64,000 bases of DNA from the sequence record PQ330092; one strand, 5' to 3'. The notes beneath the pieces are model-generated. The model did no database searches and had not been told where the DNA came from. It saw only the letters and a list, made by a program, of their open reading frames with translations. Both the position numbers and the translations under genes were made by a program. Source of the stretch: Escherichia phage JP4. The first letter of the stretch is position 1. Each line of letters begins with the position of its first letter. Of the stretch, positions 26,529 to 64,000 are shown piece after piece.

Positions 26529-27156
26529 TTAAACACAAGTAGACAGGGGAAGCTCCTAGTGAACAACCTTTATGTACAGGCGAATTGTTAAAATTCAGCC
26601 TGGACAAATGCGATCACTAGGATTCTCCCCAGGCTAAACCCAGTAATCATAGGTAGTCATAAGTAATCATATATAAACATTTATATGAGCACCGTAGAAT
26701 CACAGAATGATTATATATGATTCAGTACTGATTAGTATAGACAAGAATGCTCAAGAATGCACGGGAAGGATTCAGTACTGATATGCCACTAAGTAGGCAG
26801 AGGAAGTCTGCCGTACTTTGTAGTTTCCAAGCTCCTTTTCCATTTTGCAAATTACATCAAATGTAATCAAAAGTAATCACGCAATGATTAGTACTGAATT
26901 ATTACTTTCACCTTAATTACAATTACCCTTTTACCCTTCGGGGTAAAATTCAATTACCCCTTGAGGCTCCAGCAAAAAGTTGGTTAGTACTCCATCCTAA
27001 ATCTCGATCCTAAAAATTTTGGAGTACCTATGAAATAAAAGTTGGATCTTCGAAAGTTGAAATTTACGTTGGGACGTTTATGATTTGTGGGATATAATGA
27101 TGTTTGTAGACGGGTAGTTCTCAAGAATATCAGTACTGAATGGTGAAAGAAAGTTA

Positions 27157-27184
27157 TTGACATTATGATTCAGTACTGTATAAT
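27157..27184 (+). promoter_or_regulatory. sigma70-type promoter with no downstream ORF
   Basis: TTGACA 27157-27162, 16-bp spacer, TATAAT 27179-27184. Confidence 0.55.
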
Positions 27185-27190
27185 GTTCTA

Positions 27191-27300
27191 CATAGAGAGA
27201 TGAGTTGCTGCGAACAATTCATTTACTCTACCTCCTGTCGTGAGACAGTACAGAAAAGATAGTTCCTCCTGTGGTGGTACATCTTTTTGAACCTCATATG
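27191..27300 (+). ncRNA. candidate non-coding transcript with two CCUCCUGU motifs
   Basis: Downstream of promoter 27157; no ORF; TACCTCCTGTCGTG and TTCCTCCTGTGGTG; T5 run near 27285. Confidence 0.3.
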
Positions 27301-27368
27301 AAAATTGTAATAACAGTACTGATATTAACAGAATGGTGTCAGTACTGATTTTAATCTAAAGCATTATG

Positions 27369-27388
27369 CCACCAGCACAAGCTGGTGG
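27369..27388. other. perfect hairpin whose two arms are Chi and its complement
   Basis: CCACCAGC-ACAA-GCTGGTGG. Confidence 0.8.
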
Positions 27389-27512
27389 ATTCCCTCTAAC
27401 AGTATTCAGTACTACATGATAGTCTTCATCCTCCTAGGGTAACATAGTGAGGGCTATGATGGCAGTACTGAATACTCCCTTTCAAAAGATAGATCTATGG
27501 TATAGTACTGAC

Positions 27513-27700
27513 GGATTTTGGGTGTAGTTACCCTGGATGGATTTTGGACGTAGATATGTCTAGCCCTCCAGAAGTCTGGAAGTAAAGATGGCTATCCATC
27601 TAGACGGCTAAACGGCTAGATTTCTGGATGGCTGGATGGCTAGACGTTTGGACGGCTAAACGGCTAGATGGTTACACGTCTGGAAGTATAGACGGCTAAA
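27513..27700. repeat. iteron-like short direct repeats
   Basis: GGATTTTGG x2; GACGGCTAAACGGCTAGAT at 27603 and 27651, partial at 27691; TCTGGAAGTA at 27575 and 27679; GGATGGCT x2. Confidence 0.8.
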
Positions 27701-27849
27701 TCAAAATTTTATTTTGTTTTTCCAATAGTTCCCCTACCGCGTGGGGATAGTTTCCCCGCAGTATCTGTAGTTAGATTTTTCTGAATCTGGAATCATTATC
27801 TTATAAACTGGGGGCAATGTCAACGACCTGGCCGGATATTTTTAAAAAT

Positions 27850-27914
27850 TTTTTCAGTACTGAATTTTGGGCGTAACTATGCACCCGGTGGGCTTGAGTC
27901 TTTCTCGACTTGAT
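27850..27914 (-). ncRNA. candidate box RNA (minus strand)
   Basis: Minus-strand promoter TTGCTT-16-TATAAT at 27921-27948; the transcript carries AGCCCACCGGGTGCATAGTTACGCCCAAAATTCA; no credible ORF. Confidence 0.3.
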
Positions 27915-28039
27915 GGAACTATTATACAGTACTGGAAAAATAAAGCAATACCCTGGATGAAAAAAGTTTTAATTAATTTGCTTGCCATCCTGGGCCGGAC
28001 TATGGTACTATATTTCAGTACTGAGAAAGTGCGTTTACC

Positions 28040-28129
28040 TGCTAGGGTGCGGGAGTGTATCCTTTTTTTATATCTTGAATTTTGGGCGTAATTCCGCACC
28101 CTCTGGGGTTTCCGCTTTCTCGCGTCTAT
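28040..28129 (-). ncRNA. candidate box RNA (minus strand), paralog of 27850..27914
   Basis: Minus-strand promoter TTGACT-16-TATAAT at 28136-28163; the transcript carries GGGTGCGGAATTACGCCCAAAATTCA and a 9-bp inverted repeat AGGGTGCGG/CCGCACCCT. Confidence 0.3.
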
Positions 28130-28315
28130 GTAGTAATTATACGCTTTTTCAGGATCAAGTCAATACCTAAAAACAAAATAATTGAAAATAATTTAACGCG
28201 TTTAAACGGCCTGTAAAGCCCTGGAATGATTGGAATGGTGCAAATGTATAGCTTATGTGTATTAATGCGTTAGAATGCGTCTGAGGCCGTTTTATGGGGT
28301 GTAGTAGTGATTTGG

Positions 28316-61760: not shown

Positions 61761-61821
61761 TAACTTGCAGTACTAACAACACGGCGGGATCAGTTCCCGC
61801 CTTTTTTATAGGACAAACAAA

Positions 61822-62076
61822 ATGATTAAGGTTCAACTATATAAAGATAACATCTTACGGGTACACTATAAAGCACCTCAGAGAATCATCACAAAGGCCG
61901 TACAGCTTGCTAATGAGTTTATTAATGGTAACCTATTACCTAGGAAGTTAAGCAACGGGAAACTGCGTGTAATCGATGTAGACACTAACAACAGAATAGT
62001 AATAGAGAACACAGGAAAGATAAACCTTTATGAGCATCAACAATACAATAAGAAAATAAAACTAATATCACGTTGA
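61822..62076 (+). CDS. hypothetical protein (84 aa), copy 2
   Basis: Exact copy of 41708..41962 (+20114). Confidence 0.75.
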   Translation: MIKVQLYKDNILRVHYKAPQRIITKAVQLANEFINGNLLPRKLSNGKLRVIDVDTNNRIVIENTGKINLYEHQQYNKKIKLISR

Positions 62077-62129
62077 CAGTACTCAATTGTTTTAGTACTA
62101 TGTACACATACCAACACGGGAGAAACAAA

Positions 62130-62348
62130 ATGAAATTATCTAAAATCGAAAAGAAAACTATTGATGAAGCAGTTAAGCACGGTTATACCTTTCGTAATGA
62201 TTCACATTTTACCAATTTTCAACAAGGGTATCGTACTATTAAAAAACTAATTGACAAAGGTTTATTAGTTGAAGTCAATAACGGTAACGGTATCGAGTAT
62301 CAACCAACACAAGACGCATTTTATTTTAAGAAATATAATATTATCTAA
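62130..62348 (+). CDS. hypothetical protein (72 aa), copy 2
   Basis: Exact copy of 42016..42234 (+20114). Confidence 0.7.
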   Translation: MKLSKIEKKTIDEAVKHGYTFRNDSHFTNFQQGYRTIKKLIDKGLLVEVNNGNGIEYQPTQDAFYFKKYNII

Positions 62349-62406
62349 TTGACAGTACTCAAATGTTTTAGTACTATATGTACATACCAACACGGGGAAA
62401 AACAAA

Positions 62407-62649
62407 ATGATTACTTTAGAAAAACGTATCAAAGAAACTACATCGCTGGTGGAATTGTTAACAGTACTGAAATGTAAAACTACTCGGTTTAGTACACCGG
62501 ACTTTATTAATATGGTTGATGTTAACGGTCGTTATCGTATTGCAGTAGAACAAGGCACGGCAAAAGTATTCAGTACTAAAAACACTAAGGAAGTGATTCA
62601 CGCGGTTAGTGTAAAAAAAGTAGTTGCCATTGATAGTAAAGTACTGTAA
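62407..62649 (+). CDS. hypothetical protein (80 aa), copy 2
   Basis: Exact copy of 42293..42535 (+20114). Confidence 0.8.
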   Translation: MITLEKRIKETTSLVELLTVLKCKTTRFSTPDFINMVDVNGRYRIAVEQGTAKVFSTKNTKEVIHAVSVKKVVAIDSKVL

Positions 62650-62680
62650 TATAGTTTCATTAACTCAAGGAGAACATGCA

Positions 62681-63265
62681 ATGCGTAATTATACTAAATT
62701 CATCCGTACACTGTCAGAAATGGAAACCAACAAAGAGATCCTTTCAGCTTGTCGGTTAGCTGGTCTGGAGATCATCGGGGCAGGTTCTTCCCGTATAGTT
62801 TTCGCTTTAAATGATCGGTTAGTGATCAAGGTCGCGAATTGTGATGCGGGTGTAGAACAAAATGAAACAGAATGTAGGGTATGGAATTTTTTAGACTATG
62901 ACCGCCCTCAGTTGAAACAGTTCTTCGCTAAAGTGCATATGCATTTAAGCGATCCTGATAATATGTTTATTGTTATGGATCGGTTGAGTACTGCAAGTAA
63001 AGGCAGTGTAAAGCACGTTAACGCGTGCAATGAATTAAAGTACAATATTAAACGTAATGCCATTGAACGCCAGCACCGCTTTGCTGATGCACTACAACAC
63101 GTTGATGATACATTATCAACACTAACGATAAGAGATATCAGAAAACAGAATATCGGCCAGGATCGCAACGGCCTTATTAAAGTACTTGATTACGGTTTAA
63201 CCCGCAATATCTGGAATCAGTACTATAAAAAGCGTGATGTAAAAGCCGTAACTATAACACGATAA
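62681..63265 (+). CDS. protein-kinase-like fold protein, copy 2
   Basis: Exact copy of 42567..43151 (+20114). Confidence 0.7.
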   Translation: MRNYTKFIRTLSEMETNKEILSACRLAGLEIIGAGSSRIVFALNDRLVIKVANCDAGVEQNETECRVWNFLDYDRPQLKQFFAKVHMHLSDPDNMFIVMDRLSTASKGSVKHVNACNELKYNIKRNAIERQHRFADALQHVDDTLSTLTIRDIRKQNIGQDRNGLIKVLDYGLTRNIWNQYYKKRDVKAVTITR

Positions 63266-63487
63266 AAAAAGATTAAAAAAGGGATTGACTCCGGTCAGTC
63301 CCTTTGCTATTATATATTCATTGAGAGATAACTCACTGACCCATAGGGTGCGGAAGTGTATCTATTATATAAGTATTCAGTACTGAAAACTATTTGATAA
63401 AAAGTACTTGCATTGTACTTAGAATCAAGTATAATGTTTTATATCGAGAGGGGGAAACGGTTCTCCCTGGCAATAAGGAATAAAATC

Positions 63488-63709
63488 ATGACTACAATGA
63501 CTTGCATTTACGCTTCCAATCTTCTGAATGATGCGGCCTTTAATGTTGATTCAGAATATCAATGTTATCGGGATGAAAATAAAAAAGTTTTTGTAGTTGA
63601 TAATAATGGTTTCCATATTGAATTACAATCCGGCTTCACTGGTGTTGATGGTAAATCAGTATGGGGCGTACAGGATGATAAAGGCACATATCATTTTAAA
63701 CGTAATTAA
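63488..63709 (+). CDS. hypothetical early protein (73 aa), copy 2
   Basis: Exact copy of 43374..43595 (+20114). Confidence 0.75.
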   Translation: MTTMTCIYASNLLNDAAFNVDSEYQCYRDENKKVFVVDNNGFHIELQSGFTGVDGKSVWGVQDDKGTYHFKRN

Positions 63710-63793
63710 GTATTGACAAAGTATATTAGTACTGTATAATAGTTTACATCAAGGGGAGAATAGTTCTCCCCGATACTAAAAGGAAACAAAATT

Positions 63794-64000
63794 ATGTCCA
63801 GCTACTCCGCTACTATGATCATTAAAGATATGAACGGTAATCCTACTTCTGCTGGTGGATCATTTGGAAACATTAATTTAGATGGTCGGTTATCCATGCA
63901 ATCAGCCATCGATGCAGCGAAAGAAGTTTTTAAGAATGAATGTACTGTTAGTAAGCTGGATTATATGGGATTCGCTATCGAAAAAACTAATCGTTTTGTG
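63794..64000 (+). CDS. hypothetical early protein, copy 2, 3'-truncated by the window end
   Basis: Copy of 43680..43952 (+20114); runs off the window. Confidence 0.75.
   Translation, partial: MSSYSATMIIKDMNGNPTSAGGSFGNINLDGRLSMQSAIDAAKEVFKNECTVSKLDYMGFAIEKTNRFV

Follow-up and report, generated by a model that had tools for sequence, protein, structure and literature searches.

The 20,114-bp repeat and its layout

The sequence analyzed here, referred to as the window, is a stretch of 64,000 nucleotides (nt) of Escherichia phage JP4 (sequence record PQ330092, one strand, 5' to 3'), and the subject of this analysis is an exact repeat of 20,114 bp that begins at position 26792. To its left the window holds 26.8 kb of unique flank with two arrays of paralogous genes. 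A complete copy of the repeat unit follows at 26792-46905 and consists of a repeat-rich leader (26792-28465), a block of ca. 45 small rightward open reading frames (ORFs; 28466-46753) and a short right end (46754-46905). The remainder of the window, 46906-64000, is occupied by a second copy. Both copies are given on the plus strand.

Self-comparison of the window at an offset of 20,114 showed that 26792-43886 equals 46906-64000, with 0 mismatches over all 17,095 bp that can be compared between the copies. Identity at this offset stayed at the random level of ca. 0.25-0.30 until about position 26000 and was 1.000 from 27001, the exact run starting at 26792. Since 26792 + 20114 = 46906, copy 2 abuts copy 1, and it is the window end that stops copy 2 after 17,095 bp. 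The bases preceding the two copies are unlike, reading ...GATATGCCACTA/AGTAGG before copy 1 and ...GGGCGGGTAACCT/AGTAGG before copy 2 (here and below a slash marks a boundary or cut). An exact repeat of 17 kb cannot have arisen by chance. The first-pass annotation of this DNA had described an exact tandem duplication of 20,114 bp from 26792, with different bases ahead of the two copies and an adjoining second copy of which 17,095 bp is visible, and each of these numbers proved to be right.

Relatives of the phage and their genome ends

Positions 26000-47500 were compared by megablast with 50,697 phage records. The search returned 210 matching records, and the figures given here are from the best 30 of these 210. 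The best matches were jumbo coliphages of 310-386 kb. At the top stood 348-386-kb jumbo coliphages of the 121Q/PBECO4/G17 group, with 93-96% identity and a coverage of at most 68%, and no record identical to the query was present among the 50,697. Judged by this similarity the window is from an Asteriusvirus-type jumbo coliphage (121Q/PBECO4/G17 group), a relative of the matched records.

The repeat unit corresponds to the direct terminal repeat (DTR) of these phages. By blastn, ca. 97-98% of the unit bases have a match in the DTRs of E9.1, fEgEco12 and vB_Ec-M-J. Compared with Asteriusvirus DTRs the window sequence differs by 3-7% plus insertions and deletions, and gene content and order are the same, the DksA-like and GNAT genes described below being common to both. 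The block is syntenic and restricted to a single locus in every related genome, and this locus is the same in all relatives. The 26.8-kb left flank (2000-26900) matches the stretch just ahead of the right DTR in ELP-22, E9.1, BF17 and vB_Ec-M-J.

Both boundaries of the unit coincide with record ends in these relatives. Six independently deposited records (ELP-22, E9.1, CRJP21, fEgEco12, BF17 and vB_Ec-M-J) begin at the base that opens the unit, and the first 795 bp of the unit match their positions 1-795 (or 1-802/805). On the reverse strand, G17, WPEC3 and WPEC5 match the other end of the unit, its final base falling on their base 1 and its final 806 bp on their positions 1-806. The left boundary ...CCACTA/AGTAGGCAGAGG and the right boundary ...GGGTAACCT/TAGCGAC are nucleotide-identical to the termini of E9.1 and fEgEco12, in which the left end reads ...ccacta/AGTAGGCAGAGGAAGTCTGCC and the right end ...GGGCGGGTAACCT/tagcgacttcg, equivalent to 26791/26792 and 46905 of the window. 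Extraction of both record ends revealed an exact repeat at the two ends of E9.1 (20,107 bp) and of fEgEco12 (20,993 bp), and the vB_Ec-M-J record annotates 1-21525 as 'Direct Terminal Repeats'. Derived from record coordinates, the lengths of Asteriusvirus DTRs run from 20,107 to 22,503 bp, a range that includes the 20,114 bp of the window. In many other Asteriusvirus records, 348-356 kb long, the repeat is present once and the start is arbitrary.

For several relatives the termini were mapped from sequencing reads, by PhageTerm for fEgEco12, Sharanji and ELP-22 and by coverage for G17, and for fEgEco12 restriction digests are available as well. PhageTerm gave a DTR of 20,993 bp for fEgEco12, of which the predicted end fragments were seen in restriction digests (PMC13070987), and a DTR of 20,668 bp for Sharanji (PMC11895373). 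ELP-22 was assigned to the DTR class by PhageTerm (PMC11465974), and coverage indicated a terminal redundancy of ca. 20 kb for G17 (PMC6563267). Repeat lengths published for the group are 20.7-21.5 kb, and the fEgEco12 authors state that in the few jumbo phages of the group with mapped termini all repeats are ca. 20 kb (PMC13070987). In the single-copy Sharanji record the homologues of 26792 and 46905 span 36445 - 15778 + 1 = 20,668, which matches the published DTR, and the repeat of G17 likewise has a length of 20,668 bp. The homologues of the two window boundaries in UE-S1 lie at 117923 and 137804, implying a repeat of ca. 19.9 kb; the 8.3-kb repeat annotated for this phage was misassigned according to the fEgEco12 authors (PMC13070987).

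The copy-to-copy junction

The join between the two copies is located at 46905/46906 (no strand). A query across it (46506-47305) matched 36 phage records, all of which break exactly at the junction, with a coverage of at most 50%. No occurrence of a 28-nt junction sequence was found in IMG/VR, and none of a 21-nt junction sequence in metagenome contigs. The single-copy junction, in which the repeat end is followed by the left unique region (GGGTAACCTTAGCGACTTCG), served as the positive control and was present in three metagenome contigs and one IMG/VR contig. Because the copy-to-copy junction is absent from records and contigs while the single-copy junction is present in them, 46905/46906 is best explained as the right end of a linear genome placed beside its left end. 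The copy-to-copy join is peculiar to the window, and the simplest reading is that the right end is shown beside the left end of a linear sequence with both copies; within a single virion molecule this join is not expected. In Asteriusvirus records with two copies the copies are found at opposite ends, whereas in the window they abut.

Interpretation as a direct terminal repeat

We conclude, with a probability of roughly 0.93, that 26792-46905 is the long DTR of a linear, non-permuted genome of the Asteriusvirus type whose ends are shown joined, first the right-terminal copy and then the left-terminal one. The complete copy at 26792-46905 is the right-terminal one, since it is placed after the right end of the unique region, and the incomplete copy at 46906-64000 is left-terminal. 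The unit agrees with the Asteriusvirus DTR class in all features tested, namely length, boundaries, content, flank and absence of the junction. The first-pass annotation had already proposed that 46905/46906 joins the right and left termini of a linear DTR genome, and the correspondence of the boundaries to base 1 of nine records supports this proposal.

Some points weigh against the assignment as a DTR. The termini of the present phage are assigned by homology to the read-mapped ends of relatives. The copies could abut through wrap-around of the window or through the way in which the deposited or assembled sequence is written, and identical copies would also be expected from duplication in silico, so that identity alone is no proof of two physical copies. 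Furthermore, the hairpin at the terminus (see below) is degenerate in phage A4, and the packaging mechanism considered below is borrowed from other phage families.

If a 20-kb segment had truly been duplicated in tandem within the phage chromosome, each molecule would have two adjacent copies. Such an event would agree with the two abutting perfect copies displayed in the window, and a very recent duplication would be free of mismatches too. However, both of its endpoints would need to fall with nucleotide exactness on the read-mapped termini of at least nine related phages. Furthermore, the copy-to-copy junction occurred in no related genome, IMG/VR contig or metagenome contig although the single-copy junction was found, and the related records that have two copies carry them at opposite ends. 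We consider such a duplication highly improbable.

There is also little chance that the repeat is an artefact of assembly or representation without a defined DTR, for example a headful, circularly permuted genome with a coverage anomaly or over-circularization. Duplication by software also yields perfect identity, several related records of 348-356 kb have one copy only, and one DTR published in the group, the 8.3-kb repeat of UE-S1, is said to be wrongly assigned (PMC13070987). Against this, the same boundaries were obtained from reads in independent laboratories, and digests of fEgEco12 gave the end fragments predicted for a linear DTR genome (PMC13070987). The cut contexts are moreover conserved across genera, and in Asteriusvirus as well as fENko-Kae01 a 12-mer precedes the right cut by exactly 35 nt, a pattern that would not be seen in a permuted genome.

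The sharp unit boundaries and the short hairpin at the first bases could point to a mobile or integrative element, such as a transposon, island or prophage-like insert, that has been duplicated, but this can practically be dismissed. As the first-pass annotation had noted for integrases, transposases and terminal inverted repeats, a scan of the 20 largest ORFs in the unit and left flank detected no integrase, transposase or recombinase domain, and no terminal inverted repeats were found between the unit ends. ARAGORN detected neither tRNA nor tmRNA genes in the window, and the block is syntenic at one locus in every related genome.

Genes and promoters of the repeat

The ca. 45 small rightward ORFs at 28466-46753 (plus strand; ORFs of at least 50 amino acids (aa) counted, median 85 aa) form a putative early or host-takeover module according to the ORF list and the promoters. 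Promoters were classified as strong if their sigma-70 score was at least 11 out of 12 and as perfect if they matched TTGACA-N16/17-TATAAT. On the plus strand the unit contains 20 strong promoters versus 3 in the 26.8-kb unique flank, and 11 perfect promoters versus 0, in agreement with the earlier suggestion that the repeat carries strongly promoted early genes. All but one of the 20 strong promoters lie inside the gene block 28466-46753. The remaining one is the leader promoter at 27157-27184 (plus strand), the first perfect sigma-70 promoter of the DTR, with the structure TTGACA-N16-TATAAT and CAGTACTG abutting the -10 hexamer. Promoter-like sites numbered 107 against 69.7 ± 7.7 in shuffled sequences, and terminator-like sites 30 against 12.6 ± 3.3. 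The dense host-type promoters ahead of the small genes are all directed inward from the left end.

The 20 strong promoters (27157-45598) share an extended consensus composed of an AT-rich upstream part, TTGACA, N8-9, tAGTACTG, TATAAT, N5 and tACATCAA. In 15 of them AGTACTG is positioned directly against the -10 hexamer, where it may serve as an operator or determine promoter specificity. A 38-nt element, AAAGGGATTGACTCCGGTCAGTCCCTTTGCTATTATAT, is present in identical form at 39895, 43164 and 45422, with variants at 35875, 1108 and 2522. It contains a hairpin with a 12-bp stem and a -35-like TTGACT in the 5' arm, followed by a -10-like TATTAT or TATAAT, and resembles an intergenic cassette that combines a terminator with a promoter.

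Two proteins encoded in the unit gave Pfam matches above the curated cutoff. These are a DksA/TraR C4 zinc-finger protein at 37865-38122 (plus strand; PF01258, E = 3.2e-9; phrog_54, E = 2.2e-18) and a GNAT-family acetyltransferase at 38187-38543 (plus strand; PF00583, E = 4.1e-9; phrog_1249). A possible protein-kinase-like protein is encoded at 42510-43151 (plus strand), with a weak match to Pfam Pkinase (E = 0.002, below the curated cutoff); its homologue in fEgEco12 (g044) is annotated as a Ser/Thr kinase. The remaining unit proteins that were scanned match PHROG families of unknown function. Together with the small genes and their promoters, the DksA/TraR zinc finger and the GNAT protein fit a host-RNA-polymerase early module.

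Directly to the left of the right-hand repeat lie 21 back-to-back ORFs of 59-81 aa (21737-26528, plus strand in the ORF list), which comprise two paralogue families of 13 and 6 members (blastp E < 1e-3) and two singletons. A similar run of ORFs of ca. 65-85 aa is found in relatives just after the left repeat (E9.1 20205-22160). Further upstream, an array of 12 ORFs of ca. 245-460 aa at 7382-21652 (minus strand) encodes RCC1-like paralogues according to a domain scan. RCC1-like repeat domains (PF25390, PF00415, PF13540) were detected in the five of these 12 ORFs that were scanned, except for 14756-15493, which gave no match. Relatives label the RCC1-like ORFs 'regulator of chromosome condensation'.

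The palindrome CAGTACTG and its core AGTACT are strongly overrepresented, with an excess of 10-100-fold. CAGTACTG occurs 79 times in the window (1-64000; e.g. in 26723-28382) where 0.6 copies are expected from dinucleotide-preserving shuffles, and TCAGTACTGA occurs 27 times against 0.06 expected from such shuffles. The AGTACT core is present 237 times in 1-46905 (46.9 kb), compared with ca. 15 copies expected from base composition. The excess is greatest over the initial 1.7 kb of the terminal repeat, where it reaches 10 per kb, and it extends into ORFs, 42 of the 48 copies in the RCC1 gene block being coding. Palindromic hexamers are usually avoided in phages. A literature search yielded no paper linking AGTACT with 'jumbo'.

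Leader and conserved elements at the left end

The non-coding leader at 26792-28465 (plus strand) is 1.67 kb long, very repeat-rich and contains no convincing gene. In relatives the first well-supported coding sequence is found ca. 1.67-1.76 kb from the terminus. The leader has 10 copies of the palindrome CAGTACTG and an imperfect, RGAYGGCT-like array with an 8-nt period at 27570-27700, repeated at 47684-47814 (plus strand). For this array Tandem Repeats Finder (TRF) reported periods of 8, 16, 24, 32 and 48. It consists of ca. 16 units, such as GGATGGCT, AGACGGCT and AAACGGCT, at ca. 800 nt from the left terminus, and brings to mind the short-repeat arrays that adjoin the terminal repeat of T7. 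The initial description of both unit ends as non-coding and repeat-rich applies in full to the left 1.67 kb; the right end is non-coding too, but it measures only 152 bp and has one 13-bp inverted repeat.

The context of the left cut at 26773-26797 (plus strand) is CAGTACT-N12-(CCACTA)/AGTAGG and is conserved in relatives, CAGTACT and CACTA/AGTAGGCA being kept in E9.1, fEgEco12 and the divergent members JNE01 and A4 even though the neighbouring sequence diverges. In fENko-Kae01, a Klebsiella phage, the left cut reads CAGTACT-N15-(CGCTA)/TATCTT, that is CGCTA/TATCTTCT. The unit starts with a hairpin or inverted repeat, AGTAGGCAGA-GGAAG-TCTGCCGTACT, at 26792-26817 (plus strand; DNA fold -6.9 kcal/mol, z = -3.9). 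The hairpin GGCAGA-GGAAG-TCTGCC that had been recognized earlier in the first bases of the unit is located at 26796-26812, and in the DNA fold its stem reaches the very first nucleotide of the unit, with 10 pairs in all. An 8-bp inverted repeat, TATCTTCT..AGAAGATA, also runs from nucleotide 1 in fENko-Kae01, with a sequence unrelated to that of the window hairpin.

Inside the leader an ultra-conserved terminus-proximal element was recognized by cross-record identity at 26967-27040 and again at 47081-47154 (plus strand). It is built from an inverted repeat, GTACTCCA and TGGAGTAC, that encloses two ATCCTAAA half-sites 13 nt apart. Twenty-nine Asteriusvirus records share the 61-nt core of the element (26975-27035) with 100% identity, among them Turkey5 and JNE01, of which the surrounding 795 bp are only 83-85% identical. 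Outside these records the core is 93% identical in Munch, fENko-Kae01, 7t3, SE_PL and PHA46, 90% identical in XbC2 and partial in GAP32. It is found 54-244 nt from the left terminus in records whose start is the terminus, lies upstream of the first DTR promoters, and Asteriusvirus records have one element per DTR. Phage A4 carries a C to G change in both ATCCTAAA half-sites, a pattern that would be expected if they co-evolved with a binding protein. We consider the element a candidate protein-binding or packaging signal.

Two other roles were examined for this element. A known RNA family was ruled out: a search of 26000-47500 against Rfam at E ≤ 1 returned only three sub-threshold chance matches (mir-1000 twice and Trp leader), so the element has no Rfam match. 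The 61-nt core overlaps the 3' end of a 59-aa ORF on the minus strand (26984-27163) that is annotated in E9.1, but a coding role is unlikely because most records annotate nothing there and other genera keep only a 43-nt core. Partial duplications of the element also occur. In EJP2 (336300-337300) its 3' part is tandemly duplicated (AAATCCCGATCCTAAAAATTTTGGAGTACCAACGAAAT, twice), and in the first 220 nt of fENko-Kae01 and Munch a second partial copy (AAAGTACTCCATCCTAAATCTGAATC) is located ca. 30 nt downstream of the first.

The right end and a possible shared packaging signal

The right end of the unit is a non-coding segment of 152 bp (46754-46905, plus strand) with one inverted repeat and a 12-mer. 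The inverted repeat, AAAAAAGTCAAGG ... CCTTGACTTTTTT, is a perfect one of 13 bp that follows the last DTR gene at 46782-46847 (plus strand; fold of 46770-46860, z = -4.2). An equivalent inverted repeat, AAGTCAAG..TTGACTTTT, is present at the same place in fENko-Kae01, ahead of the 12-mer as in the window. The 12-mer GATTGGACTATG at 46859-46870 (plus strand) is positioned exactly 35 nt ahead of the right cut and is conserved in E9.1, fEgEco12, vB_Ec-M-J and JNE01. Both the 12-mer and the 35-nt spacing are the same in fENko-Kae01, where the sequence of the spacer is different. The right cut itself has the context GGGTAACCT/ at 46897-46905 (plus strand), followed by TAGCGAC in single-copy genomes, and is also conserved in relatives. 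All six aligned Asteriusvirus relatives have ...CT/TAGC and five of the six have CCT/TAGC, A4 being the exception with ...TTGCT/TAGC; fENko-Kae01 has GCCT/TAGC. A comparison of the left (CTA/AG) and right (CCT/TAGC) cuts yielded no convincing shared cleavage motif.

Site-specific cleavage by the terminase would predict such fixed and conserved contexts at the cuts, which argue against permuted headful ends, and the conserved elements beside both cuts may be regarded as candidate terminase recognition signals. More tentatively, and with the odds leaning against it, the boundary elements may jointly form a site-specific packaging signal that is shared across genera of RaK2-like jumbo phages, here Asteriusvirus, the Munch/fENko-Kae01 group, the Mimasvirus-like XbC2 and GAP32. 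On the left such a signal would include the 61-74-nt element with its two co-varying ATCCTAAA half-sites, CAGTACT and the inverted repeat at nucleotide 1, and on the right the inverted repeat followed by GATTGGACTATG, exactly 35 nt and CCT/TAGC. The passages on termini, PhageTerm and terminal repeats in the literature on fEgEco12, G17, Sharanji, ELP-22 and fENko-Kae01 make no mention of conservation of boundary elements across genera.

Comparison with other phages and proposed mechanism

Klebsiella phage fENko-Kae01 has a DTR of 19,736 bp by PhageTerm (PMC11218385). It belongs to a different genus-level cluster, its average nucleotide identity to fEgEco12 being 28.6% in a table of the fEgEco12 report (PMC13070987). 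Like the window unit, its DTR of ca. 20 kb carries ca. 50 small rightward genes (PMC11218385). The two phages share the left CAGTACT, an inverted repeat at nucleotide 1 and, on the right, the succession of inverted repeat, GATTGGACTATG, 35 nt and CCT/TAGC, and the terminus-proximal element is also present in fENko-Kae01 and the Munch/7t3/SE_PL group. In contrast, only ca. 17% of the unit (3,446 of 20,114 bases) has any nucleotide match in fENko-Kae01, and the terminus of that phage starts with TATCTTCT... instead of the AGTAGGCA... of the window.

In phage T5 (Tequintavirus) the pre-early genes lie in a DTR of ca. 10 kb and have strong host-type promoters, and the phage is further characterized by single-strand nicks and two-step DNA transfer. 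The G17 report mentions repeats of 10-11 kb for T5-like phages (PMC6563267). Both the T5 repeat and the window DTR are long exact DTRs, the former being half the size of the latter. No T5-like (Tequintavirus) phage was present among the best 30 of the 210 records that matched the unit at the nucleotide level, and we take the comparison as an analogy of principle and not of membership; the phage is not T5-like. The Bacillus phage SPO1 has a terminal redundancy of ca. 13 kb that constitutes a host-takeover module, in which every small early gene has a strong host-sigma promoter of its own. This arrangement resembles that of the repeat unit, with its 20 consensus promoters and ca. 45 small genes, although SPO1 is from an unrelated family and has an unrelated host. 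In T7 the repeat is 160 bp, as compared to 20 kb in the window. One copy is present per T7 concatemer junction, and site-specific cuts at both boundaries are accompanied by duplication of the repeat on packaging; T7 is the model that was borrowed for the mechanism.

By analogy with T7, T5 and SPO1, the replication intermediates or intracellular concatemers of the phage would hold one DTR copy per junction between unique regions. As in other DTR phages, the terminase would cut site-specifically, on the left at CTA/AGTAGG and on the right at CCT/TAGC, and the DTR would be duplicated during packaging to give a copy at both ends of every virion. After injection the two copies may recombine to form circles or concatemers, as was also proposed by the fEgEco12 authors (PMC13070987). 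The DTR genes would be transcribed first, by the host RNA polymerase, and their products, including the DksA/TraR-type zinc finger, would act on the host.

Significance for Asteriusvirus genomes

A 20-kb terminal repeat is already known for Asteriusvirus, having been published since 2019 (G17) and confirmed experimentally in 2026 (fEgEco12). The unreported details are only the conserved cis elements near both cuts and the strong excess of AGTACT. The striking 20-kb exact tandem repeat of the window is thus the published terminal redundancy of Asteriusvirus and not a new genome architecture, and in gene counts and coverage analyses of such records the second copy is to be treated as redundant. 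In the many single-copy records of 348-356 kb the start, which is arbitrary, could be moved to AGTAGGCAGAGG... and the second copy added. The conserved boundary elements offer a sequence-only way to place termini and are targets for study of how 350-kb genomes are cut and packaged. If they indeed form a shared packaging signal, the termini and 20-kb repeats of jumbo-phage records that are single-copy and arbitrarily opened would be predictable from sequence alone.

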